64,000 nucleotides of DNA from an uncultured Christensenella sp. (GCA_964564685.1 CAZMBC010000002.1:71170-135169); one strand, 5' to 3'. Shown: positions 1,293-44,841, numbered from the stretch's first letter. Program-made: numbers and translations. Notes: generated from the sequence alone by a model not told the origin.

Positions 1293-1299
1293 AAATATA

Positions 1300-1737: not shown

Positions 1738-1768
1738 TGGTATCTAACCCCCAAAAAACTAAAATCTA

Positions 1769-1797
1769 AACATTATTATATATGATTTCATATAATA
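1769..1797 (+). promoter_or_regulatory. Sigma-K-type promoter candidate
   Basis: AACA-N16-CATATAATA matches the sigma-K consensus mACm-N16-CATA---TA; followed by RBS AGGAG. Confidence 0.5.
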
Positions 1798-1824
1798 AAT
1801 TAGTTAATGATAGGAGTAAAAACA

Positions 1825-23119: not shown

Positions 23120-25861
23120 TTATTTATTTGAGTTATTCGTTTTGCGATTGCGATTAGATTTGTTTTTTAAACTATCACCGCTCATAAGTTTAGCGTCATC
23201 TTCGTCATTTTGGGGTTGTTTCTTTTTATACGTTATATAGAAAGCAATAACAGCAACTAAAAGTAGAATTGATATGCAGAACATTATAATAGTTACTACA
23301 AAACCACTGGAAAGCCCGTCCATTTTAATATATTGTGTTTTTACATATCCCTCGTGTTGGTTGTGCTCAGAATCTATAAACGAAACAAGAGTATAAGCAT
23401 GATTTTTGTCGTAATCCTTAACATAAATTTTTTGACCATTTTGTAGTGGAATGCGCTCAACATCTTCTGCGTCACTAGCTGTATCGTACATATAAGCAAA
23501 TTCACTATGGTCCAAAATTCTTATAGTGGCATTAGTTTCTAGTTTGCCCGATGAAACAATACTTTTGGTTACATCACCATTATATACATAGCCGTAGCGG
23601 TTACCAAGTTTAACAATATAATAAAAGGAATCTTGTCCCTCTAAACAGCCGTTATAAATGCCTACTGCGGTAAATACTGACCCTATGTCAATAGTATCGG
23701 AAACAATATTACTTGCAATAGTAGGGTATTTGTAAATGCTAACATCTTTGTTGTTTGCGCGTAGTTTATATTCTTGTACTGTATAGCTAGTTGGCTCTAT
23801 AGCTATTTGTGTAGGAGTAACATAACCAATCTCAAGTTTGTTATTCATAATATACCCAATACGCACAAATTCTGTGGCTTGAGTGATGTGCTCTTGTAAA
23901 ACAAGTGCAACAATGTTTGAGTTGCCAGTGTAAACAAAGTCCCCTTTAAAGTTAACTGTACTATAAATAAATGAGTTTTGCGTAATTGTGCCATAAGATA
24001 ATACATTTTCCCAACAGGTTATACTGTTTATAATTTCATATTGGTGTGGAAAATCACTTAAACCCTTACTGAATTGCAAATCAGTTATTGTTTGCAAGCA
24101 ACTTTTTCCGGTGTTAAATGCGTAAATTGTGCCCGTTGCTGGGTTTAGACTAAAGGTGCTGCAAGTGCATTTTGTATCAAGCGTATCAAAGGTTGGGGTA
24201 GATGTTAATGCGCTTTTGATAATGTTGTTGTTTACAAGCGCAAATACATTGTTTGAATAGTCTATTTCAAAAGTATCCACATTTTCAGTAAAGGATAAAC
24301 TAACAATTGAATCAACAACGCCATAGTTACTGGCAGGAGAGTTATCTTCGTTAACTAATAAGCGATATATAGTATTATCAACACTTATATATATCATGTT
24401 GTCTATTTCCGAATATCTAATAACCGAATTAAGATTGGCGGTTGCGCCCGTAATTTCAGTTATAATTGGTTCAGATGTGTACTCGGTGTATACTAATATC
24501 TCGTTTGTAGCATAATTTAGTGCATATAACTTTCCGCTGTTGTCCATGCAAAGGCTGTTAACCTGTTTTGGAACTTCTATGCTGTTAAATAAAGTGTTGT
24601 TGTATAGGCCATTGCTATAACTTAATCCATTTATATTTTGTTTTAAGCCATCCTGACTTTCGCTTAGGTAAATAAGGTTATTATTGTTATCTAGTATCAA
24701 GTTGCTTGGAGTATATACATTGTTTATTGCTGTTATTTGTGTTTCGTTAGCTCTGTTAATTATCTGCAAGCGGTTGTTATTATAATCGCTGACAAAAATA
24801 TACTTATCATTTTTAAGTGCAATAGAGTTTACGCCATCAAATCTACCAACGCTGTTGCCTTTGCCGGCTAGCATAACACTTGAAGCAGATAATCCAATAG
24901 AAGCGTCATCCTCATCTACATATAGCATGGAAGATTGGATGTTATTATGTGTTTGGTTATAGCTGTATACAACATTGTTTGAGCTATCTAAAATTATAGG
25001 ATTTCCATAATCGTTTTTATTTGCTATTTGGTTAAAGCCAGAGTCAAATAAATATAAATTATTGTTATCACATGCAAGGAAATAGTAGGATTGTCCATTA
25101 AATTGCAAGGTATCTAAACTATTTAAATTAAATTCCTCATTCTTTAAAAACTCGCTTGTGGTATGGTTGTTTTCTATTGTATCACCGGTAAAAATGTAGT
25201 TTCTAATAACTTCATCATTACCGTAAGTAAATACATAATCATTGCTAATGGCAATTTGTTGTATGGTGTAATTTATGCTAATACTTTTACTGGTGTAATC
25301 ACTATAGTCAGTAACATCTGTAAATTGAGTTATATAAATAATATTTTCCGTTTGGCCATAAACATTGGATATGCTAGCAACATAATAATTTGTACCGTCA
25401 AAACATATGTCATAGGGTGTATTAATGGTGTTTGTTATACCTGAAACTGAAGAAACATAAAGGTCGTTTACATATACAGGTGTTTCGTTGGTGTTAACTG
25501 CATATATTTTAACCTTAAGCTTTTCATGTACAAGCAAATAGCCGTTTACAAACTTAACCGAATGTACTTCGTTTGAAAAAGTAAGCAAGTGTGTTAGTTG
25601 TTGATTGTTAAAGTTATAACCATACAGTTTGTAATCAGAGGTGTCAGTTAGAACAAAGTACATTTGTGATGTGGTTGCAAAGCAAAAACTCTTCATTCCT
25701 GTAAGGTCAACATAATCCATAATTCCGTCTGGTAAAATTGTTTCATAAACCGCGTTTGAAACCGGCGATTCGTCTTCTGCCATAACAGAGTGGGTGGCAG
25801 GAAATAGTGTTGCAATTGCTAATATAACTAATGTAATTAAACCAAATTTAAACTTTTTCAT
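23120..25861 (-). CDS. Large exported, C-terminally membrane-anchored protein (beta-propeller/NHL-like repeats plus SH3-like domains)
   Basis: Signal peptide; NHL-like GRFDGVNSIAL...IFVSDYNNNRLQI; SH3-like ends GYVYNGDV, EGYVKTQYI; C-terminal TM plus basic tail; RBS before ATG 25861. Confidence 0.75.
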   Translation of the reverse strand: MKKFKFGLITLVILAIATLFPATHSVMAEDESPVSNAVYETILPDGIMDYVDLTGMKSFCFATTSQMYFVLTDTSDYKLYGYNFNNQQLTHLLTFSNEVHSVKFVNGYLLVHEKLKVKIYAVNTNETPVYVNDLYVSSVSGITNTINTPYDICFDGTNYYVASISNVYGQTENIIYITQFTDVTDYSDYTSKSISINYTIQQIAISNDYVFTYGNDEVIRNYIFTGDTIENNHTTSEFLKNEEFNLNSLDTLQFNGQSYYFLACDNNNLYLFDSGFNQIANKNDYGNPIILDSSNNVVYSYNQTHNNIQSSMLYVDEDDASIGLSASSVMLAGKGNSVGRFDGVNSIALKNDKYIFVSDYNNNRLQIINRANETQITAINNVYTPSNLILDNNNNLIYLSESQDGLKQNINGLSYSNGLYNNTLFNSIEVPKQVNSLCMDNSGKLYALNYATNEILVYTEYTSEPIITEITGATANLNSVIRYSEIDNMIYISVDNTIYRLLVNEDNSPASNYGVVDSIVSLSFTENVDTFEIDYSNNVFALVNNNIIKSALTSTPTFDTLDTKCTCSTFSLNPATGTIYAFNTGKSCLQTITDLQFSKGLSDFPHQYEIINSITCWENVLSYGTITQNSFIYSTVNFKGDFVYTGNSNIVALVLQEHITQATEFVRIGYIMNNKLEIGYVTPTQIAIEPTSYTVQEYKLRANNKDVSIYKYPTIASNIVSDTIDIGSVFTAVGIYNGCLEGQDSFYYIVKLGNRYGYVYNGDVTKSIVSSGKLETNATIRILDHSEFAYMYDTASDAEDVERIPLQNGQKIYVKDYDKNHAYTLVSFIDSEHNQHEGYVKTQYIKMDGLSSGFVVTIIMFCISILLLVAVIAFYITYKKKQPQNDEDDAKLMSGDSLKNKSNRNRKTNNSNK

Positions 25862-26073
25862 AATTCCTCTTTTTATCATATGCAATTATTATAGATATAA
25901 TATTTTTATATGTATTATAACAAAATAGTTTATAAAACGGCAACGAATAACCAATTATTTATAAAAATAATTATTGAAAATAAAAGTAAATTTTAAAACT
26001 AGGCATATTTTAAATTTTTTTTAAACAACTTTTAAACTATGACAGACAGTTGTCAAAATAAGTGATATATAAT

Positions 26074-26155: not shown

Positions 26156-26184
26156 TTGACTTTTAATATTTACAAAAATATAAT
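26156..26184 (+). promoter_or_regulatory. Near-consensus sigma-A promoter for the activator-like gene
   Basis: TTGACT-N17-TATAAT; RBS AGGAGG before ATG 26213. Confidence 0.7.
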
Positions 26185-26212: not shown

Positions 26213-26764
26213 ATGGAAATACTATGTAAAACAATTTTATCGGTGTATAAATATCTTGGGGCGATATCGGGGGCGATAGATAATTTGGTTATTAAAAAGA
26301 GTGTAAACTCTTCGTTTTATAACAATGGAAGGTTTAGTAGTGCATATGACTGTGCAAACGAGATTATGGAATTAACTGACCGCAAAGTTAACTTAATTAA
26401 CCTAAAGGTATTAACCGAGGATTGCTTAATGGAGCTTCAGCCATTGGAGCGTAAGGTGCTTTCGCTTTTATTTTTGGATAATGTAAAGCGCGAAAGTATA
26501 TGTGAGGTGCTGGAAATTTCTACGCGCACATTTTTTAGAAAAAGAAACGAAGGGATTGTTGCTTTTGAAAAATCTTTGTGTAGGCGGGGATATAACAAAG
26601 AAAAAATATTAGCCATGTTCGAAAAAGAAAAATGGCTAATTAATTTATACAAAAAAAATGGCGGAGTTATAGGACAAAATAGCCCGCTGTTCTATTCAAA
26701 TAGCAACGATTTTAGATTTATTAATAATATCATGAAAGGCTATGTTATGGCAAATGCAAACTAA
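26213..26764 (+). CDS. RinA/ArpU/Xpf-like transcriptional activator (sigma region-4-type HTH)
   Basis: LQPLERKVLSLLFLDNVKRESICEVLEISTRTFFRKRNEG resembles the C-terminal HTH of phage late activators; position ahead of packaging genes. Confidence 0.6.
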   Translation: MEILCKTILSVYKYLGAISGAIDNLVIKKSVNSSFYNNGRFSSAYDCANEIMELTDRKVNLINLKVLTEDCLMELQPLERKVLSLLFLDNVKRESICEVLEISTRTFFRKRNEGIVAFEKSLCRRGYNKEKILAMFEKEKWLINLYKKNGGVIGQNSPLFYSNSNDFRFINNIMKGYVMANAN

Positions 26765-27513
26765 AGTCGTTCGTCAATTTCGGTTATATCATATTTTTGT
26801 GATTGTTTTATAGTTTTTTTGGGTTTTGGTTTACGATAAAGTAAAAATATTATCACAAAAGTAGGCAAGCTTAAAATTACAATTGTTAGCGCAGTTTCAC
26901 CATCACTTAATGGGTTGATTATAGAGTCGTAATCGTCACTTGTGTAGGATAGTTGTTCTGCATTTGGGAATATAGTGTTTATAAATGAAATGTATTCATT
27001 ATAAATGTAGCCTTTTGTGCCTAAATATTCCACATAGTACCATATGTTGTCATCAAAGTCGCCAATTTGTTCGCCGTATGTCATGCCAATAAAGGTAAGA
27101 CCGCTATAATTGCTGGGCACAATCGAAATAGTATTGTTTTCCTTTGTTGGCGTTTCGCGCAGATAGCAATTTTTGTTATATGTGGTAAGCTTTATATTGT
27201 TTGGGTAAGGTGTTTCTGGAGCTCCATTCACTTTTTTAACCTTATCTTTTTCAATATATCCGCTTGTTCCATTATAATTTACTTTATACAAGCTTTCGTT
27301 ATATGATGAAAGGATTTCTACATAATATGTGTTTTCAGCAACGCATATTATGTTTTTTATAGCCTGATTAACCTCAGGTGTGCGATATAAGTATGCCCCC
27401 TTAAAGGTAACCTGTGCCCATGTGCCATCTTTTGCAAAGGCTACTGATATTGGATTAGTACATATGGATAGGTAAATCACAAAACAAACTATACCATAAA
27501 CAAATTTTTTCAT
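26761..27513 (-). CDS. Exported two-SH3-like-domain protein with C-terminal TM anchor
   Basis: Signal peptide; LYKVNYNGTSGYIEK and WYYVEYLGTKGYIY SH3b-like motifs; TM followed by RKPKPKK. Confidence 0.75.
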   Translation of the reverse strand: MKKFVYGIVCFVIYLSICTNPISVAFAKDGTWAQVTFKGAYLYRTPEVNQAIKNIICVAENTYYVEILSSYNESLYKVNYNGTSGYIEKDKVKKVNGAPETPYPNNIKLTTYNKNCYLRETPTKENNTISIVPSNYSGLTFIGMTYGEQIGDFDDNIWYYVEYLGTKGYIYNEYISFINTIFPNAEQLSYTSDDYDSIINPLSDGETALTIVILSLPTFVIIFLLYRKPKPKKTIKQSQKYDITEIDERL

Positions 27514-27587
27514 ACTTTAATTATAAATTAAAAGTTAAAATTTATAACGTAAAAAATGTGTCTTATATTGCTTAAAAAAGGAGGGTT

Positions 27588-29042
27588 TTGGCAAACGGGA
27601 TAGATATGAGAAAAAAAGAGATAGAACGGCGTTTGGAACAGGTGGAAAAGCAGATTAGATACAAAAAAGAAAATTGTCGTTTAGAAACCTATAACACGGG
27701 TAACAAGGTGCATTTAAAACAACTTATGTTCCACAAATGTCAAAAAAGAAACAGGTGGGTTTTTGGCGGAAACCGAAGCGGAAAAACCGAGTGTGGCGCG
27801 GTGGAAACAATTTGGTTGGCGCGAGGGATACACCCGTTTAGACCAAACAAACCTGACATAAGCTGTTGGGTGGTCTCGCTTTCTACACAGGTACAAAGAG
27901 ATGTGGCTCAAAGCAAAATTTTATATTACTTAAACAAAGATTGGATAGTGGATATTATTATGCTTTCGGGTAAAAAATCCTCTGCAAAAATGGGCGTAAT
28001 AGATACCATATTAATTAAAAATGTATTTGGCGGAGTAAGTAAAATTGGCTTTAAAAGTGTTGACCAAGGTCGCGAAAAATTTCAAGGAACGTCGCTTGAC
28101 TTTGTGTGGTTTGACGAAGAACCGCCCTACGATATTTATACCGAATGTAAAATGCGTGTTATTGATAAGGATGGAGAAATATTTGGAACAATGACACCAC
28201 TTAAGGGACTGACATGGGTGTATCACACAATATATTTAAACGAAAGCAACTCACCTGAAAACTGGTACATCCAAATGGAGTGGAACGACAATCCGTTCTT
28301 AAGCAAAAAAGACTTAAAGGAACTAGAAAATTCTTTAAGCGAGGAGGAATTAAATGAACGAAAACTTGGTTTATTTTCTGGCCATAGCGGGCTTGTTTAT
28401 AGCGAATTTAATGAATGTGTTAATGTTATAGAACCTTTTAATGTGCCCAAAGAATGGTACGACAAAATATCAATTGACCCTGGTTTTAAAAACCCTTTGA
28501 GCGCACACTGGTATGCGGTGGATTTTGATGGCAATGTGTATGTGATTGCCGAGCATTACGAAAAAGATAAAACTATTGAATATCACGCCCAAAAAATTTT
28601 GGAAATTTGCGATCGCTTGGGCTGGCACCGTAATTATAGTGGAAAGGTGGAGGCACTTATTGATAGCGCGGCAAATCAGCGTACTTTGGCAAGTGTGAAA
28701 AGTGTATCCGAACTATTTTTTGAACTAGATATTGCTGTTAACCCTAATGTTAATAAGGACTTGTTTACAGGAATTCAGCGTGTTAAAAGTTATTTTAAAA
28801 ACGCGCAAGGCAAGTCACGACTTTTTATATTTAAAAATTGTCCAAATCTTATTAGAGAAATTAAAGGCTACTTTTGGAACAAGGATGATGTGCCTTTTAA
28901 AAAGGATGACCATGCTTTAGATGAGCTAAGGTATTACATAATGTCAAGACCAGAAAACGCCCCTAAAAAACCCGAAAAAACTGCTGTTCAAAAAGATAAA
29001 GAACGACTATATAAAGCAATAAAATATTCTAACAGATATTAG
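27588..29042 (+). CDS. Terminase large subunit
   Basis: Walker A GGNRSGKT, Walker B VWFDEE, coupling motif TMTP, RNase H-like nuclease SIDPG...DSA...DHALDELRY. Confidence 0.93.
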   Translation: MANGIDMRKKEIERRLEQVEKQIRYKKENCRLETYNTGNKVHLKQLMFHKCQKRNRWVFGGNRSGKTECGAVETIWLARGIHPFRPNKPDISCWVVSLSTQVQRDVAQSKILYYLNKDWIVDIIMLSGKKSSAKMGVIDTILIKNVFGGVSKIGFKSVDQGREKFQGTSLDFVWFDEEPPYDIYTECKMRVIDKDGEIFGTMTPLKGLTWVYHTIYLNESNSPENWYIQMEWNDNPFLSKKDLKELENSLSEEELNERKLGLFSGHSGLVYSEFNECVNVIEPFNVPKEWYDKISIDPGFKNPLSAHWYAVDFDGNVYVIAEHYEKDKTIEYHAQKILEICDRLGWHRNYSGKVEALIDSAANQRTLASVKSVSELFFELDIAVNPNVNKDLFTGIQRVKSYFKNAQGKSRLFIFKNCPNLIREIKGYFWNKDDVPFKKDDHALDELRYYIMSRPENAPKKPEKTAVQKDKERLYKAIKYSNRY

Positions 29043-29049
29043 GTGGCAA

Positions 29050-29355
29050 ATGAAAAAAAAGTTAAAAAAATTGAATGAAGCGCTGTACAAAAAGGCGCTA
29101 GGTTATACTGCGGAGGAAATTAGTGAAGAGTATAGTTTGGTGGATAATGAGCTTGTGCTTTCCAAGCGCAAACTTAACACAAAAAACTATCCACCCGACC
29201 TTAACGCCTTGCAGTTTCTTTTGGGCGAACTAGAGGGTAAAGAAGAAAATGTGTACGAAAACTTTAGTTTAGAGGAGCTTGAGCAAGAGCGAAAGCGCTT
29301 GCGTGAACTGCTAGATAAAGGTGCAACCTCTGCGGGATTTAATCAAACTGAATAA
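29050..29355 (+). CDS. Terminase small subunit-like protein with no N-terminal HTH
   Basis: EALYKKALGY...KNYPPDLNALQFLL resembles the oligomerisation core of HTH-type phage TerS; the motif starts at about residue 10. Confidence 0.55.
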   Translation: MKKKLKKLNEALYKKALGYTAEEISEEYSLVDNELVLSKRKLNTKNYPPDLNALQFLLGELEGKEENVYENFSLEELEQERKRLRELLDKGATSAGFNQTE

Positions 29356-29364
29356 GGAGAAAAT

Positions 29365-29577
29365 ATGAAAATTGAGGAAATAACCTACAAGATATGTTGT
29401 GATATGCCTGGATGTGAAAACTTGGCAAAATACAGCCTGTTTAACACTAAGTCCAAAGGTGATGCATGCATTAACATGTGTGCAGATTGTGTAAGACAAC
29501 TATACGAAAACATAGGGGCGTTTTTGGTGCCCAAAAGTCCAAAAAATATATTAAACAACAATACAAAAAAGAGGTAA
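29365..29577 (+). CDS. Small Cys-rich, putative Zn-binding protein
   Basis: CDMPGC...CADC; good RBS AAGGAG. Confidence 0.6.
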   Translation: MKIEEITYKICCDMPGCENLAKYSLFNTKSKGDACINMCADCVRQLYENIGAFLVPKSPKNILNNNTKKR

Positions 29578-29579
29578 TT

Positions 29580-31457
29580 ATGACAGAATTAAACAATGAA
29601 TTATCAAATGATAAAATGCTTGTTCATGAGGTGTTAGAAGATTTTAAACAGCGCCAAATAAACAAACGCGCATTTGAAAGCACTTGGCAGTTAAACATCA
29701 ACTTTTTGCTAGGAAATCAGTATTGCTTTTTAAATGGAAAAAATGACCTTATAGATGAGAAAAAACAGTTTTTTTGGCAGGAGCGAGAAGTGTTTAACCA
29801 CATTGCACCAATTGTGGATTTGCGTATGTCCAAGCTGGCAAAAATTCGTCCTGCACTAACAATCGTGCCTTTTAGTGATGACCCAAAGGATATTGCTTGT
29901 GCAAAGGTAAGCAAAAATCTTATTAAGTCAATTTCATATGATTTAAATCTAAATAGCATTATTGCAAAAGCAACCATGTGGAGTGAAATTACTGGCACAT
30001 CTTTTTACAAAGTAAGTTGGAATGCGCAAAAAGGTCGTTTGGTTTCTTATGACGAAAATGGAGCACCTGTTTATGAGGGCGAAGCAGAAATAACAGCCGT
30101 ATCGCCATTTGAAATTTATCCCGACAGCAACACATATAGTCAGGTGGATGATTGCAAAAGCATTATTCACGCAAGGGCTTATCAGGTAGATGAAATTAAA
30201 AATATTTGGGGAGTAGATGTAAAGGGTGATGACATTGATGTGTTCTCGCTTGAAAGTATTACAAATCTTGGTGGGTTAGGATATCAGGCTAGCGCTACAA
30301 GTGTAGGCAAAAAAATGCAGAAAAACCATGCAGTTGTTATTGAACGCTATGAAGCCCCTAGTGTTGAATTCCCTAATGGGCGATTGGTTATTGTGGCGGG
30401 TGAGCGCCTTATACATGTTGGCGAATTGCCATACGAAAACCAACTTAACTCAAAACGCGGTTTCCCGTTTATAAAACAATGCTGCTTGCCAGTTCCAAAT
30501 TCGTTTTGGGGAACAAGTATCATAGAACGCTGTATACCCGTTCAGCGCGCATACAATGCAGTTAAAAATCGTAAACACGAATTTTTAAACCGTATTTCAA
30601 TGGGAGTTTTGGCTGTTGAGGATGGTTCGGTTGATATTGAAAATTTGGAAGACGAAGGATTGTGTCCTGGCAAAATTTTGGTGTATAGACAAGGTGCTAC
30701 ACAACCTAAAATGCTTGCTTCCGAAACCATCCCTGCTTCGTTCGAAAACGAGGAAGATAGGCTACTAGAGGAGTTTTTAAACATAAGCGGGGTAAGTGAT
30801 ATGCTAACCAATCACACAATCAGAACGGGAAATATAAGTGGTGTTGCACTTCAGTTGCTTATGGAACAAGACGAGGAGCGTATTTTAACAAGTGCGGACG
30901 AAATAAAGTCTGGCGTTAAAGAAATTGCAAAACACATATTGCGACTTTATAAGCAATTTGCAGTTATTCCGCATACTTCACGCTTGGTGGGTGAAAATGG
31001 TGGAATTGAGATGTTCTATTGGAAAAATTCGGACATCACAAGTGAAGATGTTGTATTTGAAACTGAGAACGAACTAACGCAAACAGTCACACAAAAACGT
31101 TCCTTTATTTACGACCTTTTAAACACAGGTTTGCTACAAGACGAAAGTGGAAAAATGACAAATTCTACCAAACAAAAAGTGCTTGAACAGCTAGGATTTG
31201 GTATTTGGGATAATACGCAGGATTTGCGTAGTTTGCAAACAAATAGAGCAAATGATGAAAATTACAACTTGATTAAAACACATGAAATTAATGCGCCAAT
31301 GGAAATTGATGACCATAATATTCACATAAACGAGCACGTATGTTTTATGTTAGGAAAAGAGTTTGAAAAGGCGGTCAAGCACAATCCTGACATTCAACAA
31401 ACTATGCTAGCTCATATTCGCGAACATAAAAAATGCAACAATCAAAATCATGAATAA
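29580..31457 (+). CDS. Phage portal protein (P22/T7-like size)
   Basis: ~625 aa, follows terminase; FNHIAPIVD, FWGTSIIE, ISGVAL motifs; RBS GAGGT before ATG 29580. Confidence 0.82.
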   Translation: MTELNNELSNDKMLVHEVLEDFKQRQINKRAFESTWQLNINFLLGNQYCFLNGKNDLIDEKKQFFWQEREVFNHIAPIVDLRMSKLAKIRPALTIVPFSDDPKDIACAKVSKNLIKSISYDLNLNSIIAKATMWSEITGTSFYKVSWNAQKGRLVSYDENGAPVYEGEAEITAVSPFEIYPDSNTYSQVDDCKSIIHARAYQVDEIKNIWGVDVKGDDIDVFSLESITNLGGLGYQASATSVGKKMQKNHAVVIERYEAPSVEFPNGRLVIVAGERLIHVGELPYENQLNSKRGFPFIKQCCLPVPNSFWGTSIIERCIPVQRAYNAVKNRKHEFLNRISMGVLAVEDGSVDIENLEDEGLCPGKILVYRQGATQPKMLASETIPASFENEEDRLLEEFLNISGVSDMLTNHTIRTGNISGVALQLLMEQDEERILTSADEIKSGVKEIAKHILRLYKQFAVIPHTSRLVGENGGIEMFYWKNSDITSEDVVFETENELTQTVTQKRSFIYDLLNTGLLQDESGKMTNSTKQKVLEQLGFGIWDNTQDLRSLQTNRANDENYNLIKTHEINAPMEIDDHNIHINEHVCFMLGKEFEKAVKHNPDIQQTMLAHIREHKKCNNQNHE

Positions 31458-31469
31458 AAAGAGGATAAG

Positions 31470-32108
31470 ATGGAAGAAATACAAAAATTAAATGGAGAAC
31501 AACCACAAGACAACGGCTCTACTGCAACGGCAGAATTTGACGAAATAGCATCGGCGTCAGAAGGCTCTCCATTAGGTAAATTTAAAGATGCCAACAGCCT
31601 GCTTAACGCGTATAACAACTTGCAAAGCGAGTTTACAAAAAAGTGCCAAAAGTTAAGCGAGTTGGAAAAGCTTGGGATGCGTGATAATGCTTCTGAAGAT
31701 GTTTCGGAAACACCATGCTATCTTAAGGAAGATTGGCATAGCACTTTGGCGGAGTTTTTAAACACCCATAAAAGTGCAAAGGTGTTTGTAAACGAAATTG
31801 CAGAGGAAATTAGTAAAGATAAGGTTTTGGCATGTGGCAAAAACCCCTTGAATATTGCTTATGCAAAAGTTTTGGACAAACACTACAAAACAAATGAGGA
31901 ACTGTTTAAAGATGACAAATTTTTGAATGAATATCTTAAAAACAACCCTCAAATTGTTAACGACATTGTTAAAAAATATTTAGCTGAACTGCCAAAAACT
32001 CCACGAGTTATGGCGGAAACACGAGGATGCGCAACTACGCTTACGCCAGCAGTTCAACCTAAAGATTTAAATGAGGCAATGAGTATGGCACAACTTTTAT
32101 TTAAATAA
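31470..32108 (+). CDS. Capsid scaffolding protein
   Basis: Acidic N-terminus, LLNAYNNLQSEFTKKCQKLSELEK coiled coil, C-terminal helix; lies between portal and capsid. Confidence 0.7.
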   Translation: MEEIQKLNGEQPQDNGSTATAEFDEIASASEGSPLGKFKDANSLLNAYNNLQSEFTKKCQKLSELEKLGMRDNASEDVSETPCYLKEDWHSTLAEFLNTHKSAKVFVNEIAEEISKDKVLACGKNPLNIAYAKVLDKHYKTNEELFKDDKFLNEYLKNNPQIVNDIVKKYLAELPKTPRVMAETRGCATTLTPAVQPKDLNEAMSMAQLLFK

Positions 32109-32124
32109 TTTATAAGGAGAAAAT

Positions 32125-33315
32125 ATGGTAACATTAGACACCGCAGATAAAGCGTTAAAAACAGTATATTTGGGCGTTATTTCCAACCAACTAAATGTAA
32201 ATACAAACCCTTTATTTGCAAAAATTAAACAATCTTCTACCTATGTAACAGGTAAGGAAGTAAGAAAAGTTGCACCTTTTGGTATCAATGGCGGTATTGG
32301 TGCAGGTGCAGAAGATGGACCGCTTCCTTTAGCAGGCGGAAACAACTATGTTCAATTTGTTAGCCAACTTAAAAACTTGTATGGAACAATTGAAATTTCG
32401 GATAAGGCAATACGAGCAAGCCAAAACAACGCTGGCGCATTCGTAAATCTTTTAAATGCTGAAATGGAAGGCCTTATCAAAGCAAGCGCTTATAACTTTA
32501 GCAGAATGCTTTATGGAAACGGCTCGGGCTTTTTAGCAGAATTAACATCTGCAGCATCAAGTAGTTCAGCACAAAGTGAAGTTGTAACAGTTGATAGTGT
32601 TCAGAACTTAATTGAAGGTATGACAGTTGATGTTATAGACTCTACAGATAATAGCAAATTGTATGGTGGTTTAAGAATTGTTTCTATTAACAAAACCAAT
32701 AAACAAGTAACATTAAACAAAAAAATCTATGTAGCAGATGTGTCAGATGGCGGTTTTAAACTTACTGTTCAAAACTCTCTTATGAACGAGATTACAGGTA
32801 TTGAAGCGTTGTTTGACCCAACAGTATCTACTTTGTACGGAGTTTCTAAATCAAGCAATCCTTGGTTAACCCCTTATACAAAAACAAACGCAGGAGCAAT
32901 TAGCGACGCGTTAATTCAAACAGCAATTGACGAGTTAGACGAAAATGTTGGTAGTGATATTGACTTTATTTCTTGTTCAAGTGCAGTTAAACGTGCTTAC
33001 CAAACCTATTTAAGCACATATCGCAGAAATATTGATACAATGGAGCTTAATGGTGGTTTTAGAGCAATAAGCTATGGTGGAATTCCTATCATGAGCGATC
33101 GCTTTGTTGGTGGCCAAAATATGTTGCTTTTAAATACCAAAGAGTTTACATTGCATCAGCTTTGCGATTGGCAATGGTTGGAAGGTGATGACGGTTCCGT
33201 TCTAAAACAAAAAGCAGGCTACCCAGCATATACCGCAACCCTTGTAAAATATGCCGAATTAATTTGCGATAAACCATCTGGTCAAGGCAAAATAAGTGGC
33301 ATTACTATTTCTTAA
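32125..33315 (+). CDS. Major capsid protein (HK97 fold)
   Basis: 396 aa; KNLYGTIEISDKAI, RMLYGNGSG, SYGGIPIMSDRF, LVKYAELICDKP; position after scaffold. Confidence 0.85.
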   Translation: MVTLDTADKALKTVYLGVISNQLNVNTNPLFAKIKQSSTYVTGKEVRKVAPFGINGGIGAGAEDGPLPLAGGNNYVQFVSQLKNLYGTIEISDKAIRASQNNAGAFVNLLNAEMEGLIKASAYNFSRMLYGNGSGFLAELTSAASSSSAQSEVVTVDSVQNLIEGMTVDVIDSTDNSKLYGGLRIVSINKTNKQVTLNKKIYVADVSDGGFKLTVQNSLMNEITGIEALFDPTVSTLYGVSKSSNPWLTPYTKTNAGAISDALIQTAIDELDENVGSDIDFISCSSAVKRAYQTYLSTYRRNIDTMELNGGFRAISYGGIPIMSDRFVGGQNMLLLNTKEFTLHQLCDWQWLEGDDGSVLKQKAGYPAYTATLVKYAELICDKPSGQGKISGITIS

Positions 33316-33330
33316 TAGAAAACAATATAT

Positions 33331-33360
33331 GGGGTAAGTTTATTCTTGCCCCTTTATTTT
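33331..33360 (+). terminator. Intra-operon terminator or stabilising hairpin after the capsid gene
   Basis: GGGGTAAG-TTTATT-CTTGCCCC-TTTATTTT. Confidence 0.65.
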
Positions 33361-33373
33361 TAAAGGAGGAGTT

Positions 33374-33754
33374 ATGAAAATTCTAATACAAAACGATATG
33401 TTTAATATCGCTAAACGATTAAAAAATATAGACAGTGATTATTTTGTTTTGTTTAATACAAAAAACAAAAAATTCGAGTTGCACAACTCTGCACAGGGTA
33501 AAAGCACCTATTGCTTAACTTTTCCTTTTGACACACTGGATGCGCGTGCTATTGAGCACACCTTTAAAACTAGTGTACGAAACTCCAGTAAGATTTTTTT
33601 TGAGATTGAAGAAACAAATAATAAAATTGAAACAGCGCAAAACGAAAAAATTTTAGACGAATGTAAATGTATTTTTAAGGATATATACAATTATTCTAAC
33701 GCCCACACAAAAGATTTTGATGTGGAAGATATATATAAAAACAAATGGATTTAA
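33374..33754 (+). CDS. Phage-module hypothetical protein
   Basis: 126 aa, strong RBS AAGGAGGAG, inside the morphogenesis operon. Confidence 0.65.
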   Translation: MKILIQNDMFNIAKRLKNIDSDYFVLFNTKNKKFELHNSAQGKSTYCLTFPFDTLDARAIEHTFKTSVRNSSKIFFEIEETNNKIETAQNEKILDECKCIFKDIYNYSNAHTKDFDVEDIYKNKWI

Positions 33755-33768
33755 AAAAAGGAGAAAAT

Positions 33769-34329
33769 ATGACTGTAAAACAAATAATAACGGATGTTGC
33801 ATACTTACTGGATGATAACCGATTGCTTACTGCAATTAATACAGATAATTTTGCTGGACACTTACAAAATGAACAAAACCTTTTAGTAAAATGTGTAAAT
33901 TTTGTCAATAACATTATAGCAACTGACTACTTTCCCCTTATTTCTAGCAAAAAACTGCTAACAAATGTAAATACTGTGCCATTTTCAGACATAACAAAAT
34001 CAACTATTTTTGACATCTTGCAAGTAAAAGACGATTACGGATATGTTACGCCGTTTAAGGTTACTAATGAAGGAGTAGAAACTGTTAAAGGCAATATCAC
34101 AATTAAGTATGCATATTTGCCAGAAGATGTAACTTACGATTCAAGTATAACAGCTTATCCTATTAAAATTAACACACGTATTTTTGCCTACGGAGTTGCA
34201 AGTGAATACTTGTTTATAAAAGGCAATTACGATGATGGTGAAATCTGGGAAGAACGTTTTAAAAATGCAATGAAAGCCTTGCAAAGAACACGAAAAAATG
34301 TTGTTATGCCTAAAAGAAGGTGGAAATAA
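33769..34329 (+). CDS. Putative head-tail adaptor (T7 gp11/P22 gp4-like role)
   Basis: ~186 aa; C-terminal YGVASEYL...WEERFKNAM helical pattern; position after capsid; RBS before ATG 33769. Confidence 0.55.
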   Translation: MTVKQIITDVAYLLDDNRLLTAINTDNFAGHLQNEQNLLVKCVNFVNNIIATDYFPLISSKKLLTNVNTVPFSDITKSTIFDILQVKDDYGYVTPFKVTNEGVETVKGNITIKYAYLPEDVTYDSSITAYPIKINTRIFAYGVASEYLFIKGNYDDGEIWEERFKNAMKALQRTRKNVVMPKRRWK

Positions 34330-35825
34330 TGATTGGCAAGGAAGGTGGTAAAAAATTAAAATACAAGCTTTTTAACTATGCAAATTTTGAAGCAGGAATT
34401 AATACTGACATTGACGAGAATATTATTCCTATGAATGTTTCTACAAATTCATACAATTTTTCATATAAAAATGGTGCGCTAACCACTGGAATGGGTGTTG
34501 GCGACCTTAAAATACGATATGACTTAACTGACGAAGAAAAAATAAGGGGTATAAGATATCCTGAAGATGTGGAACTTTTAACAATATGGAACTATGAAAA
34601 TTATTTTTCTGAAACTGAAACGCTTAGTAGATGGTTAATATTTTATGGTTCGGATAAACGCATTTACATGCATTACATGTATATTAATAGCGGAACTATT
34701 TTGCCACTATCTTCAACTTTGCAGGTAGAAAGCGTACCTAAATTTATGTTTTATCGTATTAATGGTGACCCTTATTATATTTTTATAACCAAGGATGCTG
34801 GCATGCAAGCTTACAATATGAGAAATCAGGCATTGCGAACTATAACAAATATTCCTACTATTAATAGTTATTGCATACATAATAACAGACTGTATGTAAC
34901 AGATGTGGACCATAAAAATCAGGTTTGGTATTCGCATGAAGATGACCCAACAAATTGGGCTATTAACAGTGATGATTCAGGAAGCATTGAATTTAAAGAT
35001 AGACGAGGAAATTGCTTAAAGGTTGTTGCATTTGAAGACTATGTATATGTGTTTAGAGAGTATGGCATTTCAAAAATTACCGCACACAAACAGCAAAGTG
35101 AACCACAAACCGAAAATATGTTTTTATCTAGTAATAGCATAAAAGGTGATACCGTTTGCGTATGCGGAGATAAGATATTGTTTATGACTACTGACGGCTT
35201 ATATTCATTTAACGGCAATACAGTTTCTAAAATTGAGGTAAAAGTAGAAAGTTTGCTGCGAAAAATTACCAAGTATTTATGTGCAGAATATCATAATAAT
35301 GCCTATTATTTGGCATGTAAAATTAACTTTGATGATAACAATTTAATTGGGTGTGAGAAAAATGGAGACTATACCACAAACGCATTATTGAAATTTGATT
35401 TAACAACAAATGAGCTGTCAATTTTAAGAGGCGTTGATATAACTTTTATGAATGCAATTAAGGAAATTAACCAAAACTTTTTAGCAGTTGTGATTAAAGA
35501 AAATGATGTTCATAAAATTGGTGTTATAGACGAATCTGGTAAAGTTTTTAATAATAATTTAGCGAAGTACTGGAAGTCGGGCTGTTGGGATTTTGATATG
35601 CCAAACAAGAAAAAATTATTTAAAAAGTTTTATATAAATTGCGAAAAAGATGCTACCATCACTTTTATTGTTGATGGACAAAAATATGTGTATGAAATTT
35701 TAGGTTCAGAAGATACTATTACTCTGTCGCCAAATTTAAGAGGATATAATTTATCGGTAGAAATATCTGCAAGTGATCCCGAAACAAAAATTTCTGCACC
35801 AAAAATTATGGTAGGTTATCTATGA
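34329..35825 (+). CDS. Putative tail nozzle/stabilisation protein (P22 gp10/T7 gp12-like beta-propeller)
   Basis: ~498 aa, beta-rich; HNNRLY, VWYSHEDDPTNW, YWKSGCWDFDMPNKKKLFKK; TAATG coupling to the adaptor. Confidence 0.6.
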   Translation: MIGKEGGKKLKYKLFNYANFEAGINTDIDENIIPMNVSTNSYNFSYKNGALTTGMGVGDLKIRYDLTDEEKIRGIRYPEDVELLTIWNYENYFSETETLSRWLIFYGSDKRIYMHYMYINSGTILPLSSTLQVESVPKFMFYRINGDPYYIFITKDAGMQAYNMRNQALRTITNIPTINSYCIHNNRLYVTDVDHKNQVWYSHEDDPTNWAINSDDSGSIEFKDRRGNCLKVVAFEDYVYVFREYGISKITAHKQQSEPQTENMFLSSNSIKGDTVCVCGDKILFMTTDGLYSFNGNTVSKIEVKVESLLRKITKYLCAEYHNNAYYLACKINFDDNNLIGCEKNGDYTTNALLKFDLTTNELSILRGVDITFMNAIKEINQNFLAVVIKENDVHKIGVIDESGKVFNNNLAKYWKSGCWDFDMPNKKKLFKKFYINCEKDATITFIVDGQKYVYEILGSEDTITLSPNLRGYNLSVEISASDPETKISAPKIMVGYL

Positions 35826-37024
35826 TTAGCGGTAAAGATTATGCTTCAATTGCCTATACAAAAAGCGTAAAACTAGAGAAGGATAAAATCATCCAAGATA
35901 ATTATTTATATGCTCAAAAAATTCAAAGATTTAATCTACCAAAAAGAAGTTTTTATCAAAGTTATTCTAAAGGTTTTTTACTACAGTGTGAAGAAGGTAG
36001 CTGTGCAAATATTCAAATTTTTGGTGAACTTGATAATGAAGTAACGCTAGAGTTATTAATAAATGATGTGCTTATATTATCACAAACAGGTGCAAAATTT
36101 AACATCATAGATAACGTTACTGTCAGTAATTTATGTAATATTGTCATTAAACTTACATCTGATACATCTAGAAAAATTTTAAATTTTGTGCTGAAAATTA
36201 ATGCAAAATTTAAAAATGGTGTAAAAAGTGATAAAAGAACGATAAAGGGCACAAGAAATTTTTTACTAGTTTTAAACAAACTAGATGGTGACATGTATTA
36301 TGATAAGTATGTTGATTTTGATTCATTTAAAAATGGAATAAAAACTAAATGTGGACTATTGCCATATGCAAATATAATTGATACTGATTATTGTATTGAT
36401 CCAACTAATGCTAATGCAGTTAAGCAAGAATGTTTTTTGTTAAAATCTGGTAGTGAATTGGATGTAAAAATTGGTGACTTGGTAAGTAATATATGTAATG
36501 TTAAAGTTGATGTTGCTTGTATCAGTTTTTTAAAAAGCTCAACTGATGCTTTGGTGCAAGTTATTTATAGCATAGATAATGTTATTACTGTTTGTGTTGT
36601 GAAATGTGATGGGACAATTGTTAATACTTACACAATAACACCAAGTGTTAAATCGCCAATTAAGTTAATCGGATCAATTGTTAACTCTTGCTCAAGCTAT
36701 GTTAATGGGTTTTATTTTCTTACAGCAAACAATGAAGTTTATTTGTGTGTTAGAAGTACAGACACAGGTGAATTTTGTACGCCATTTAAATGTGGCATGG
36801 GTGAGGATAGCATGGCTTTTATGGGTGAGAATAAACTATATCTGTTTACATATATGAATAACTGCTTAGACTTGCAAGTTTTTTCTGTAACAACAGATGA
36901 TGTATGCCAGGATATAACTCGCTATGGCGTTTATAAATATTACAATTGTCAGGAAGGCTTTGTTTATGATGGCAACATTTATGTAATTTGTGATGACATA
37001 GTTACGCAGGTGGAAATTGAATAG
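35822..37024 (+). CDS. Beta-rich, Cys-rich hypothetical protein, candidate tail appendage or receptor-binding protein
   Basis: 400 aa, ATGA overlap with the upstream gene; visibly AT-rich. Confidence 0.5.
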   Translation: MISGKDYASIAYTKSVKLEKDKIIQDNYLYAQKIQRFNLPKRSFYQSYSKGFLLQCEEGSCANIQIFGELDNEVTLELLINDVLILSQTGAKFNIIDNVTVSNLCNIVIKLTSDTSRKILNFVLKINAKFKNGVKSDKRTIKGTRNFLLVLNKLDGDMYYDKYVDFDSFKNGIKTKCGLLPYANIIDTDYCIDPTNANAVKQECFLLKSGSELDVKIGDLVSNICNVKVDVACISFLKSSTDALVQVIYSIDNVITVCVVKCDGTIVNTYTITPSVKSPIKLIGSIVNSCSSYVNGFYFLTANNEVYLCVRSTDTGEFCTPFKCGMGEDSMAFMGENKLYLFTYMNNCLDLQVFSVTTDDVCQDITRYGVYKYYNCQEGFVYDGNIYVICDDIVTQVEIE

Positions 37025-37868
37025 TATTGTTAAAGAAAATATTTTGCGGCAATATAAAAACTTTGTGGCAAGCTTTAACCATAAACAATTTTTAAAAAAT
37101 GGAGGAGGAAATATGCTTTCTAATTTAATTGATGAGCAAACATATAATGATGCACTTAATCTTGCTAAACAAAGTGAGGTAAGTGCAGATGTGCTTAATT
37201 TGGTTTCTGAAATACAAAACCTTGACAGCGCTTGCGAGGTAAAAGAACCAATTTTGCAAGTGGCAGAAAGTGAAGATATGACGGTCAGCAATGTTACTAC
37301 CGAGCCAACTGAGGAAACTCTTATGGAGATGAAGTGGCTTGAAGGCGCTTTGGAACTTAAAAACAAAACAATGCTTGAAAAAAATGAGTACAAGCGCTTT
37401 GAAGAGATTAATGCTAACATGACAAGAGAGTTAAATGGCATATATGTTGAAACAGAAACGCTTAAGAAAGCGCGTCAAGATGCACTAAACTCTTTTGATA
37501 TAGCTAAAGTGGTGGAAATTGATGAAAAGTTAAAAAAACTGAATGGACTGTACAGCGAGAAGCTAAAAGAAGCAGATGAACACAAAAAGCAAATTGTTAA
37601 CTATGAAAAAGAGTACGAAGAAAAATATAAAGAACTTGAGAACAGTTTGCAAAATACAAATTTTAATACGGACAAGGTTACTATTAACAAAGAGCACTTT
37701 GGAAACAAAGTTTTAAACGATTATAAAAGTAATAAAACGCTAGAACTTGTTAAAGGTTTTTTAAGCAACTACTCTAAAGAAACAGCAAAGCAAATTTTGC
37801 AAAATACCCCTGCGCTTATTGAGAGTTTGGGCGGAAAATATGCAGATTTGCTAAAAGAGTATGAATAA
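37017..37868 (+). CDS. Coiled-coil hypothetical protein, candidate internal virion/ejection protein
   Basis: E/K-rich helical sequence; position after tail genes. Confidence 0.5.
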   Translation: MNSIVKENILRQYKNFVASFNHKQFLKNGGGNMLSNLIDEQTYNDALNLAKQSEVSADVLNLVSEIQNLDSACEVKEPILQVAESEDMTVSNVTTEPTEETLMEMKWLEGALELKNKTMLEKNEYKRFEEINANMTRELNGIYVETETLKKARQDALNSFDIAKVVEIDEKLKKLNGLYSEKLKEADEHKKQIVNYEKEYEEKYKELENSLQNTNFNTDKVTINKEHFGNKVLNDYKSNKTLELVKGFLSNYSKETAKQILQNTPALIESLGGKYADLLKEYE

Positions 37869-38116
37869 TGTGGGAAAAAATATTTAACTTGGCAATTTCA
37901 AATGGAATATGGGCGGTCCTTTTTTTAGCATTGTTGGTATTTCAGCTAAAAGATAGCAGAACGCGCGAACAAAAATATCAGAAAACTATAGAAAACTTGT
38001 CGACCTCGTTGGAAGTGGTTAAGGATGTTAAGGAAGATGTAAGCGAAATTAAGGCGCATCTTAACATGGTTTCGCCAAAATCCGATGTTAAAACGGAGGT
38101 TGCGGATGAAAAATAG
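37868..38116 (+). CDS. BhlA/UviB-family holin-like protein
   Basis: LAISNGIWAVLFLALLVFQLKDSRTREQKYQKTIENL is the BhlA/UviB pattern. Confidence 0.8.
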   Translation: MWEKIFNLAISNGIWAVLFLALLVFQLKDSRTREQKYQKTIENLSTSLEVVKDVKEDVSEIKAHLNMVSPKSDVKTEVADEK

Positions 38117-38684
38117 ATTTAAGACTTATGGGTTTTGGATGTCGCTTTCTAGTGCAATTATAATTTTAATACAAAGTGTGGCATCGCTTTTTGGCTACGA
38201 ATTTCAAACTACATTAATAGAAAACATAATTATGGCAGTGTGTGGTGTATTGGTTGTGTTGGGTATTGTTAATAAGCCCGCGCAAACCGAGCCACTACAG
38301 AATGAAGAAACAACACAAGATAATTCTGGTGCGTCTGATGAAGTTAAGGAAACCTTTGAAGAAAACTTGATGTTTAAAACAACTGATGTAGAAATGCAAA
38401 CATGTTTGTTTAATGACAAAAATGAAGAACAAAGTACAATTCCAGATATGTTGGAAACTGTTGAAAACATAGCTAAAAGTGTAGTTTTGAACAATGAGTT
38501 GCAAGTTTTTAAAAAAGAACCTGAGGCCATTTCTGTTGTGGATAATGATAATAGTAAAAGTGAGACAAATCTAAAACAATCAGCACAAAATAATTGTTTT
38601 GAAAATGTATCTTCTAATAGCGATAATGATATTATGATTGCCGAGCGAGTTCGCGTAAGCGATTCTGACGAAAATTTTCACTAG
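38106..38684 (+). CDS. Phage holin-like protein (two TMs) with long acidic C-terminal tail
   Basis: NRFKTYGFWMSL...LVVLGIVNKP resembles phiLC3-type holins; ~130-aa acidic low-complexity tail; RBS GGAGG before ATG 38106. Confidence 0.6.
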   Translation: MKNRFKTYGFWMSLSSAIIILIQSVASLFGYEFQTTLIENIIMAVCGVLVVLGIVNKPAQTEPLQNEETTQDNSGASDEVKETFEENLMFKTTDVEMQTCLFNDKNEEQSTIPDMLETVENIAKSVVLNNELQVFKKEPEAISVVDNDNSKSETNLKQSAQNNCFENVSSNSDNDIMIAERVRVSDSDENFH

Positions 38685-38734
38685 TTGCAATTAAAAAAAA
38701 GCCATAAGGCATGGCGATTACTTTAATATGGTTT

Positions 38735-38765
38735 AAAAAGCACAGCAAAAATGCTGTGCTTTTTT
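38735..38765 (+). terminator. Terminator closing the phage-derived operon
   Basis: AAAAAGCACAGCA-AAAA-TGCTGTGCTTTTTT. Confidence 0.85.
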
Positions 38766-38864: not shown

Positions 38865-39815
38865 ATGCTTTACAAGAATACATTTAAACTCATGTTTTCT
38901 AATGCAAGTTTGATTTGGAAACTTTTAATATACTTTATTGTAGCCTTGGCTTTTGTTCTTGGCCTTATGTTTGTTGTTAGTTTGCCAATTTATGAGGTGC
39001 TAGTTGCGGAAGGTTTTTTTGAGGCTATTTCGGATACTTATTTTGACTTTATTACATCATTAAATCTTAAGGTTTTGTTTGAAAATATTTCGCTTCTTTC
39101 CACAATGTTTGTACAAATTATCATTGGCAACTTTACTAAACTTGTTGTGCCTATAATAGCATTCTTATTTGTTTCGATTATTTTAGGTGGTTTTGTATTT
39201 AACTTATATCAGATGCCAACAGCAGGTGTGCTAAACATATATATGAACAGCAATGTTAAGCAAGGTTTTATGACTAACTTTTTTGGCACAATTAAGCGCA
39301 ATTTAGCGTTTGGCGGAATGTATTTAATAACGCTTTTACCGCTTGATTTAGGGATATTTGCATTATTAGTTTATGCATTAAGATTGTTTAAGTTAAACGG
39401 AATAATCCTTGTACTTGCGCCATTTATTTTAATAGTTGGTTTTACGCTTTTGCAATCACTTAAACTAACACTAACCTGCGGATGGGTGCCCGCTATGGTC
39501 ACAAAAAACAAAGGTGTAATTACGGGCCTAAAAGGCAATTTTATTGTTGCAAAGCGTCGTTTTTGGCAAACTTTCGGAAATGCTTTTGTACTTGTTGTAA
39601 CGCTTATATTTATTAACGTATTTGGATGCCTTTGTAGTTTTGGTGTTGCGCTTATTATAACAATTCCTTTATCCTTTTTGCTAACCAGCATTTTTGGAAT
39701 GGTTGCGTATTATATGTCGATTGGTCAAAGGTTTTATGTTGACCCATACAATGTTATTGCTCCCAAAACAATGGAATATACAGAAAAACTTCGTACTCAA
39801 AAATACACGATTTAA
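38865..39815 (+). CDS. Multi-pass membrane protein of unknown function
   Basis: About six hydrophobic segments; RBS GAGGTG before ATG 38865. Confidence 0.75.
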   Translation: MLYKNTFKLMFSNASLIWKLLIYFIVALAFVLGLMFVVSLPIYEVLVAEGFFEAISDTYFDFITSLNLKVLFENISLLSTMFVQIIIGNFTKLVVPIIAFLFVSIILGGFVFNLYQMPTAGVLNIYMNSNVKQGFMTNFFGTIKRNLAFGGMYLITLLPLDLGIFALLVYALRLFKLNGIILVLAPFILIVGFTLLQSLKLTLTCGWVPAMVTKNKGVITGLKGNFIVAKRRFWQTFGNAFVLVVTLIFINVFGCLCSFGVALIITIPLSFLLTSIFGMVAYYMSIGQRFYVDPYNVIAPKTMEYTEKLRTQKYTI

Positions 39816-44839: not shown

Positions 44840-44841
44840 AT

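Follow-up and report, generated by a model that had tools for sequence, protein, structure and literature searches.

Gene transfer agents (GTAs) of the RcGTA type and the PBSX element of Bacillus subtilis are non-replicating, host-controlled structural gene clusters that package host DNA. Outside the Alphaproteobacteria, to our knowledge, only very few GTAs have been described. A candidate cluster was found in a 64-kb stretch of DNA from an uncultured Christensenella sp. (GCA_964564685.1, CAZMBC010000002.1:71170-135169), which belongs to a host group of heritable, health-associated gut Clostridia. The whole stretch is called the window and coordinates are counted from its first letter; its open reading frames (ORFs) were listed and its proteins were subjected to family and profile searches. 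The cluster, a phage-type structural operon at 27588-38764, probably derives from a short-tailed phage of the SU10/P22-portal type and would be a remnant that was domesticated, is inherited vertically, is fixed in a large clade of Christensenellales-like gut Clostridia and has a GTA-type function. The domestication and the vertical inheritance, taken by themselves, are held with high confidence.

The first podovirus-like GTA-like element, FpGTA of Faecalibacterium prausnitzii, was described in 2026 (PMC12946183, Nat Commun 2026), and the short-tailed type was described there from Faecalibacterium only. FpGTA was reported to consist of two operons and to form tail-less-looking capsids of 40 nm containing 8.4-8.9 kb of chromosomal DNA. 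In the same paper, virus-like particles (VLPs) of Christensenellaceae were found to show GTA-type chromosomal packaging, with peaks of 4.1 and 7.1 kb in HGM11616 and 6.3 kb in QANA01, and no gene cluster was assigned to this packaging (PMC12946183). Full-text literature searches gave this as the sole relevant paper.

Comparison with described systems

The cluster was found to resemble FpGTA in being a chromosomal cluster of about 10-11 kb in gut Clostridia that contains TerL, a TerS-like protein, a portal, a scaffold-position gene, a major capsid protein (MCP) and short-tail-type proteins. The TerS-like protein lacks an obvious DNA-binding domain in both, and the TerS of RcGTA is likewise described without one (PMC12946183). 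Neither contains integrase or replication genes and both are near-ubiquitous in their host group. The MCP of FpGTA is annotated as 'N4-gp56 family', whereas the MCP of the window was matched only by capsid_maj_Podo (NF033394), with no match to the N4-gp56 model at E <= 0.1, the two capsids being compared by description. A Prp-like protein stands between portal and MCP in FpGTA and none was seen here. The fibre, receptor-binding protein, holin and endolysin genes of FpGTA form a separate operon at a distance of about 125 kb, whereas the distal proteins and the holins of the present cluster lie inside the same operon and no endolysin was seen. The host order is also not the same. When the FpGTA capsid was sought by cluster look-up among 50%-identity representatives, no Faecalibacterium names were obtained. 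The cluster therefore appears to be a family distinct from FpGTA, as compared by description, and of the same functional kind. The preliminary description had called it possibly undescribed; this holds for the family, which appears distinct and undescribed, and not for the kind, which has its precedent in FpGTA (PMC12946183).

PBSX was found to share with the cluster a chromosomal position in a member of the Bacillota, the absence of replication, a late operon under a sigma-like positive factor (Xpf), and a holin-based lysis; it is a defective phage that packages about 13 kb of host DNA. It differs in its contractile, myovirus-like tail, its size of about 28 kb, its restriction to a few Bacillus species and its effect, which is killing rather than transfer. 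The TerL of the window scored 31.8 bits against the PBSX TerL family TIGR01547, for which the cut-off is 105, and family searches gave no contractile sheath or tube families among the cluster proteins.

RcGTA of the Alphaproteobacteria was found to be similar in its order-wide vertical inheritance under purifying selection and its restriction to head, packaging and tail genes. Further likenesses would lie in a TerS that recognises no specific sequence, in expression under host control and in the lysis of only part of the cell population. It differs in being siphovirus-like, in its unrelated gene set spread over several dispersed loci, in its regulation by CtrA and GafA and in its Gram-negative lineage. 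The portal, MCP and adaptor families of the window are podovirus-type, so that the cluster is not of the RcGTA head-tail type. It is outside both the PBSX and the RcGTA families.

A partial likeness of the structural genes was found with SU10 (Kuravirus) and P22-type short-tailed phages. The portal passed the cut-offs of both P22_portal and SU10_portal, the MCP and the adaptor gave weak full-length SU10 matches, the order TerL, portal, scaffold, MCP, adaptor, nozzle was the same, and the best PDB match of the 501-aa protein was an SU10 tail chain. These phages are autonomous, with genomes of 40-77 kb, whereas the window contains a structural and lysis module only.

Distribution and fixed position of the module

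The MCP was found to be at most 28% and TerL at most 30% identical to proteins of cultured phages (50,697 phage records). More than 6,300 relatives of the MCP were present in the protein collection, the top 120 being all at least 60% identical and many of them lying on contigs of 100-755 kb. When a collection with a single genome for each species was scanned, at least 589 MCP-encoding stretches were obtained, carried almost exclusively by uncultured Clostridia, Christensenellaceae or 'Christensenella' metagenome-assembled genomes (MAGs) from gut and rumen. The best 80 of these loci formed the synteny set, in which the window proteins were located by tblastn, and the module gene order was found to be conserved across them. 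In most loci with readable flanks the module was preceded by pdaB, an ssb-like gene, p921 on the minus strand, the activator and the SH3 gene on the minus strand, and followed by the gene of a 316-aa membrane protein, rnj, a methyltransferase gene, a U32 peptidase gene and sigK. The same order with the same host flanks was found in dozens of species, and close relatives with an MCP identity of 81-85%, on contigs reaching 389 kb, showed an identical layout gene for gene.

A sample of ten loci was chosen through rnj alone, which avoids the bias of selection by MCP. The module was present in eight of them, interrupted in one and absent in one, the most distant. A metagenome scan with rnj gave eight loci, three with long flanks; the module stood upstream in three loci with rnj at 54-67% identity, and was absent at a locus with 48% identity, where rnj, the methyltransferase gene, the U32 peptidase gene and sigK were kept. 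Among six rnj homologues (71-76% identical) picked only for their long contigs, five were found to carry the full visible module. In the sixth (L161, rnj 71% identical) a separate element at 380-3289, containing a 469-aa tyrosine integrase and a metallophosphatase, was inserted precisely in the gap that separates the MCP hairpin from the following module gene, with the equivalent of the MCP 3′ hairpin retained. This case illustrates the appearance of a true mobile element at such a locus. The module is thus not sporadic. Its constancy of position was found to hold across very divergent species and not throughout, since one subclade has a TerL-less version at other loci. Only very distant relatives resembled real phages; one such phage contig (L144, MCP 31% identical) was found to have the same structural gene order beside RusA and tail-fibre genes.

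The flanks in the window were found to be of host type, with housekeeping and sporulation genes throughout, as had been described before. Upstream of the module are Obg, TsaE/TsaB, a Mur ligase, Ddl, MurG, topoisomerase subunits, PdaB and a two-OB protein resembling the single-stranded DNA-binding protein; downstream are RNase J, the methyltransferase, the U32 peptidase, SigK, RNase P RNA, MgsA and LepA, followed further on by HemN, HrcA, DnaK, DnaJ, PcrA and LigA. The preliminary description had recognised no integrase, att repeats, repressor switch or replication genes on either side, and this was borne out for the entire 64 kb, in which no integrase, recombinase, excisionase, repressor switch, replication or primase gene, no tRNA and no att-like flanking direct repeats were found. 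The absence of an integrase is not an assembly gap, as the same layout was found in close relatives on contigs of 389 kb and 910 kb. An artefact of assembly was ruled out in general by the identical layout on contigs up to 910 kb, and a skin-like element splitting sigK was ruled out by a sigK that is intact and 5 kb away.

These results bear on the possibility of a still-mobile element, either a satellite of the capsid-forming phage-inducible chromosomal island (cf-PICI) type or a temperate phage with integrase and replication genes elsewhere, which would repeatedly target the site by rnj. Many such contigs are classed as viral by IMG/VR, site-specific elements can imitate synteny, and the module was found at other loci in some lineages. 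However, the 64 kb contain none of the mobility genes or att repeats that such an element would use, the real integrase element of L161 is a separate insertion within the module, and the module trees track the host gene tree with a fully host-like codon usage, as given below. In IMG/VR itself 65 such loci were found, and those with enough flank bear the same host genes on both sides, which identifies them as the same chromosomal locus labelled viral. A still-mobile element is accordingly regarded as very improbable.

Inheritance and selection

The host tree was that of a single gene, rnj, for 19 taxa. The distances of rnj and of the module genes were found to be correlated, with Mantel r of 0.85 for MCP, 0.89 for portal and 0.81 for TerL (p <= 0.0005), values comparable to those of rnj with other host genes (0.82-0.94). 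The neighbour-joining tree built from TerL, portal and MCP combined had 11 of 16 bipartitions in common with that of rnj, whereas 0.27 on average, and never more than 3, were shared when the labels were permuted. The congruence of the module with a host gene, for which the preliminary description had proposed a test, was thus found both in tree shape and in distances (Mantel r 0.81-0.89).

With cuts at contig ends excluded, full-length ORFs were found for MCP in 80 of 80, for TerL in 44 of 45 and for portal in 67 of 69 cases, so that the module is not pseudogenised; the two portal exceptions are an artefact, because the query had been inflated to 659 aa. The identities to the two closest relatives were 90 and 82% for TerL, 88 and 78% for portal and 85 and 81% for MCP, next to 90 and 84% for rnj and 83 and 79% for the U32 peptidase. 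In the core module genes of the same two relatives the nonsynonymous divergence (dN) was 0.07-0.15 and the synonymous divergence (dS) was above 1 and saturated; dN is far below dS, the ratios being approximate. The correlation of relative synonymous codon usage was 0.92-0.94 between module and host genes and 0.94 between host gene sets.

Such figures leave little room for an inert prophage remnant in which decay has not yet begun. Most phage functions, including the endolysin, are indeed missing, as would be expected of a remnant, but the ORFs were found to be intact across species with RNase J differing by up to 57%, dN stays far below dS and the catalytic motifs are conserved, and this explanation is effectively refuted. 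The fixed locus, the tree congruence, the intact ORFs, the purifying selection and the host-like codon usage together uphold the earlier designation of the module as domesticated and vertically inherited.

Organization of the operon and packaging genes

The module was found to be a single co-oriented operon of 11.1 kb (27588-38764, plus strand for all genes and signals below) with an intergenic spacing of -32 to +58 nt. It is closed by an intrinsic terminator at 38735-38764 containing a 13-bp stem followed by a T run. ORFs, families and stem agree with the tightly coupled operon of about 11 kb with a clean terminator at 38735 that had been described.

The operon begins with TerL, the large terminase (27588-29042; Terminase_6N, E 1e-11). 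It was found to contain the Walker A motif GGNRSGKT, the Walker B motif FVWFDEE and the nuclease aspartates, each at least 90% conserved in 46 homologues, which confirms the intact catalytic motifs noted earlier. It is followed by a TerS-like protein of 101 aa (29050-29355), matched weakly by the C-terminal part of the TerS family phrog_309 (positions 197-243 of 319, E 2e-5). This protein contains only the conserved C-terminal TerS segment (KKAxGY..E..EEY...KRKV.TK..PPD), without the N-terminal DNA-binding domain, and would work as TerS if the resemblance reflects function. A Cys-rich protein of 70 aa (29365-29577), kept in 39 of the 80 loci, is placed between the TerS-like gene and the portal; its cysteines are arranged as CC-x4-C ... 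C-x3-C-x2-C, which gives it a zinc-ribbon-like look.

The portal of 625 aa (29580-31457) scored 50.5 bits for P22_portal and 37.6 bits for SU10_portal, both above the curated cut-offs; its start is the ATG at 29580, not the listed 29478, and its length of 625 aa matches the relatives. The following protein of 212 aa (31470-32108) is assigned to scaffolding by position and had no family match, including none to Prp, in the family searches. The MCP (32125-33315) was matched by NCBIfam capsid_maj_Podo (NF033394) with E 4e-76 and came just below the cut-off for SU10_MCP (23.6 bits against 24.1). A G+C-rich hairpin followed by a T run at 33331-33352, 3′ of the MCP gene, is a candidate attenuating terminator. 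An encapsulin-type compartment was ruled out by the presence of portal and TerL.

The hairpin is followed by a conserved protein of 126 aa (33374-33754) in the head-completion or connector position and by an adaptor-like protein of 186 aa (33769-34329, with 33769 as the true start), which was matched weakly by SU10_adaptor over its full length (20.3 bits, cut-off 27). The protein of 501 aa (34320-35825; phrog_3287) is a virion protein and a candidate nozzle or tail hub. The nozzle role, given to it in the preliminary description, is suggested by position and by the weak match to the SU10 tail chain 7z47_G (E 0.059), its best PDB profile match. PDB sequence and profile searches with the 501-, 400-, 283- and 101-aa proteins gave nothing significant. 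Single-sequence AlphaFold2 models had predicted local distance difference test (pLDDT) values of 35.6 for the 501-aa and 40.3 for the 400-aa protein and were too poor for use.

A 16-nt string of ribosome-binding site and start, ATAAGGAGAAAATATG, was found at 29352-29367, 32112-32127 and 33756-33771, one copy containing one mismatch. The copies precede the 70-aa gene, the MCP gene and the adaptor gene, respectively.

Variable distal proteins and lysis genes

The 501-aa gene is followed by a fast-evolving protein of 400 aa (35822-37024), which its divergence among relatives makes a candidate receptor-binding or distal tail protein. In the closest relatives it was found to be only 29-36% identical, where rnj is 84-90% identical, with a dN/dS of about 0.5-0.6; it had no tblastn homologue in the 80 loci and no family match. 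The next protein, of 283 aa (37017-37868), is DUF7934-like, DUF7934 being called also in relatives, and its variability is close to that of the 400-aa protein. In other lineages both genes were absent and proteins of 700-1100 aa with Peptidase_M26_N, GLUG or InlB-B-repeat domains were found, encoded either in the gap from TerL to the 101-aa gene or downstream of the holins. Such variability is the pattern expected for receptor-binding parts, which suggests that the particles still need cell-surface recognition. A conserved core with hypervariable distal genes would be a natural system for the study of the evolution of GTA recipient range.

One gene of the 700-1100-aa class, resembling a surface protein (L011, 3351-6325; Peptidase_M26_N, InlB B-repeat/Flg_new), was found in the gap between TerL and the 101-aa gene in a lineage without the 400- and 283-aa genes. 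The insertion is shared by L007, L014, L017, L021, L022, L026, L027, L029 and L047, and its product may be an alternative receptor-binding protein.

The distal proteins are followed by two holins, one of the BhlA family (37868-38116, E 5e-17) and one matched by Phage_holin_1 (38085-38684). The latter contains 199 aa here and 82-119 aa in relatives, with an acidic, low-complexity C-terminal extension of about 100 residues that could be due to a lost stop codon or be a lineage-specific extension.

The rapid change of the distal proteins, and their swapping between lineages, would also suit strain-level warfare, and the particle may instead be a PBSX-like, bacteriocin-like killer that packages DNA and is selected for killing or damaging competitors on adsorption. 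Its evolutionary signature would be the same as that of a GTA, namely a fixed locus that has lysis genes and a sigma-like activator but neither integrase nor replication genes; PBSX is a precedent in the Bacillota, and the doubt between killing and transfer has been raised for FpGTA as well (PMC12946183). However, the known killers (tailocins and PBSX) use contractile or long tails, the strongly conserved TerL, portal and MCP point to a need for filled heads, and family searches recognised no toxin-like or immunity-like gene in the cluster. We also know of no killing mechanism for a short-tailed capsid particle. A killer particle is thus considered unlikely, and 'GTA-like or bacteriocin-like', as first worded, remains the right level of claim for a locus known from its genes.

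TerL-less variants

A subclade was found to contain a module that begins at the 101-aa gene, without an adjacent TerL, in other host contexts (L016, L025, L033, L043, L044, L064, L066, L073; L048; L076). The commonest context, conserved over eight species, is RsmE and an ABC transporter on one side and two unknown genes followed by ComEC on the other; single cases adjoin MurD-FtsW or AspRS.

The persistence of these variants with intact head genes, one of them two genes from ComEC, could point to co-option for another host function, such as a part in sporulation, DNA export, or programmed lysis by which DNA or public goods are set free, with particles as a by-product. The two holins without an endolysin and the sporulation-linked neighbours pdaB and sigK would also fit. 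But the neighbourhood of sporulation genes is no evidence of co-regulation, no sporulation-type promoter was identified in the promoter and motif searches, and a full head, packaging and tail set under purifying selection exceeds the needs of lysis. Co-option of this sort is considered improbable, somewhat more so than a killer particle.

Proposed mechanism and its weighing

For the preferred reading of a domesticated short-tailed phage remnant with GTA-type function, the following course is proposed from homology. The neighbouring sigma-r4/DUF1492 regulator would turn on the single late operon in some cells, and the portal, the scaffold-position protein and the MCP would build procapsids. These would be filled by the headful through TerL and its truncated TerS-like partner. 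As no DNA-binding domain is recognisable in that partner, the packaged DNA would be whatever is available, that is, chromosomal. The connector, the adaptor, the 501-aa hub and the distal proteins of 400 and 283 aa would finish a short tail that binds related cells, and release of the particles would depend on the two holins together with host autolysins or a lysin from another locus. The particles would then most likely serve as a gene transfer agent. Packaging of the GTA type rather than the phage type is suggested because no gene for its own replication or excision is present in the cluster or near it, and also because the sole TerS-like protein is a 101-aa fragment without the N-terminal DNA-binding domain. 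A GTA function of the cluster is plausible on these grounds.

Several points weigh against this reading. The assignment of the 101-aa protein as TerS is weak, resting on an E value of 2e-5 for part of one PHROG, and non-specific packaging by TerL with this protein is inferred. Family searches gave no endolysin in the cluster. The TerL-less subclade would indicate either split loci or a function that needs no packaging. The dN/dS values are only rough because dS is saturated. At the rnj-anchored loci the MCP was found to be 50-61% identical where rnj is 71-76% identical, so that the MCP evolves faster; portal was 57-61%, the U32 peptidase 65-69% and the methyltransferase 46-51% identical there, and the core module genes thus evolve at the rates of ordinary host proteins, not more slowly than rnj. 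An MCP slower than RNase J was dropped, as that appearance came from selecting loci by MCP similarity. PBSX is a precedent for a DNA-packaging domesticated particle that acts as a killer and not as a transfer agent. The tie between the cluster and the Christensenellaceae packaging events is circumstantial. The packaged sizes of 4.1-7.1 kb (PMC12946183) are smaller than the operon of 11.1 kb; GTA particles would be expected to contain near-random host DNA in pieces shorter than the cluster.

A bolder version of the same reading is entertained with rather more doubt than belief. The cluster would be an ancient, roughly order-wide GTA of Christensenellales-like bacteria, domesticated from a podophage of the SU10/P22-portal type independently of FpGTA, PBSX and RcGTA; it would be the source of the 4-7 kb chromosomal packaging seen for Christensenellaceae in VLPs from human faeces, and the swapping of distal proteins would set the exchange partners.

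If the preferred reading is true, a second, independently derived family of short-tailed GTAs would be present in hundreds of species of gut Clostridia, and capsid-mediated flow of chromosomal genes would be a general trait of gut Bacillota. A testable gene cluster would be at hand for the unexplained Christensenellaceae packaging events, and many 'viral' contigs in catalogues of the IMG/VR type would need to be re-labelled as host loci.

Activator gene, regulatory signals and neighbouring genes

The operon is preceded by a lone activator-like gene of 183 aa (26213-26764, plus strand), as had been described; it was found to match Sigma70_r4_2, DUF1492 and phrog_36, the last being of the late-transcription-regulator type. 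It was present in the same position in 24 of the 80 loci (tblastn) and in close relatives, and may correspond to late activators like the Xpf of PBSX. On its 5′ side a candidate sigma-70-like promoter, TTGACT-17-TATAAT, was found at 26156-26184 (plus strand) with 11 of 12 consensus matches. A search for promoter motifs in the gap between the SH3 gene and TerL gave subclade-specific motifs only, in an A+T-rich background. The motifs TTTTGTCGCAAA and GAGTATTGACT were conserved upstream of TerL in a G+C-rich subclade (L037, L050, L053 and L023, L031, L053, L054) and may serve the late operon as operators or promoters. The Rfam scan gave no riboswitch near the cluster.

The SH3 surface protein (26761-27513, minus strand) was found to contain a signal peptide and SH3_3 domains and to end in a membrane anchor at the C-terminus. 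Its gene, a divergently transcribed and conserved neighbour, is syntenic in 29 of the 80 loci, and its distances follow those of rnj (Mantel r 0.95). A perfect TATAAT in the region 27514-27530 (minus strand) ends 6 nt before its ATG and is kept in the G+C-rich L031, L037 and L050; its retention even in G+C-rich relatives suggests a leaderless mRNA for this gene. The surface protein p921 of 921 aa (23120-25885, minus strand), likewise a conserved neighbour, contains a signal peptide, propeller-like repeats, an SH3-like C-terminal part and a membrane anchor. The two proteins thus share an architecture of signal peptide, SH3-like domains and C-terminal anchor, and both evolve fast, with 37-46% identity for p921 and 64-75% for the SH3 protein where rnj is 84-90% identical. 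They could be envelope proteins related to the adsorption of the particle.

The gene 3′ of the terminator was found to start at 38866, not at 38751. It encodes a polytopic membrane protein of 316 aa (38866-39815, plus strand), has its own promoter-like site and terminator, and is conserved in its place next to the module, with the holins on one side and rnj on the other. Directly 3′ of sigK is the RNase P RNA of class A (44509-44841, plus strand; 239.8 bits).

In NCBI several carrier MAGs (L013, L020, L023, L031, L065 and L078) bear the names Spirochaetales, Acidiphilium, Corallococcus or (Ca. Fimimonas) Myxococcaceae; these are evident mislabels, because the flanks are of Clostridia type.

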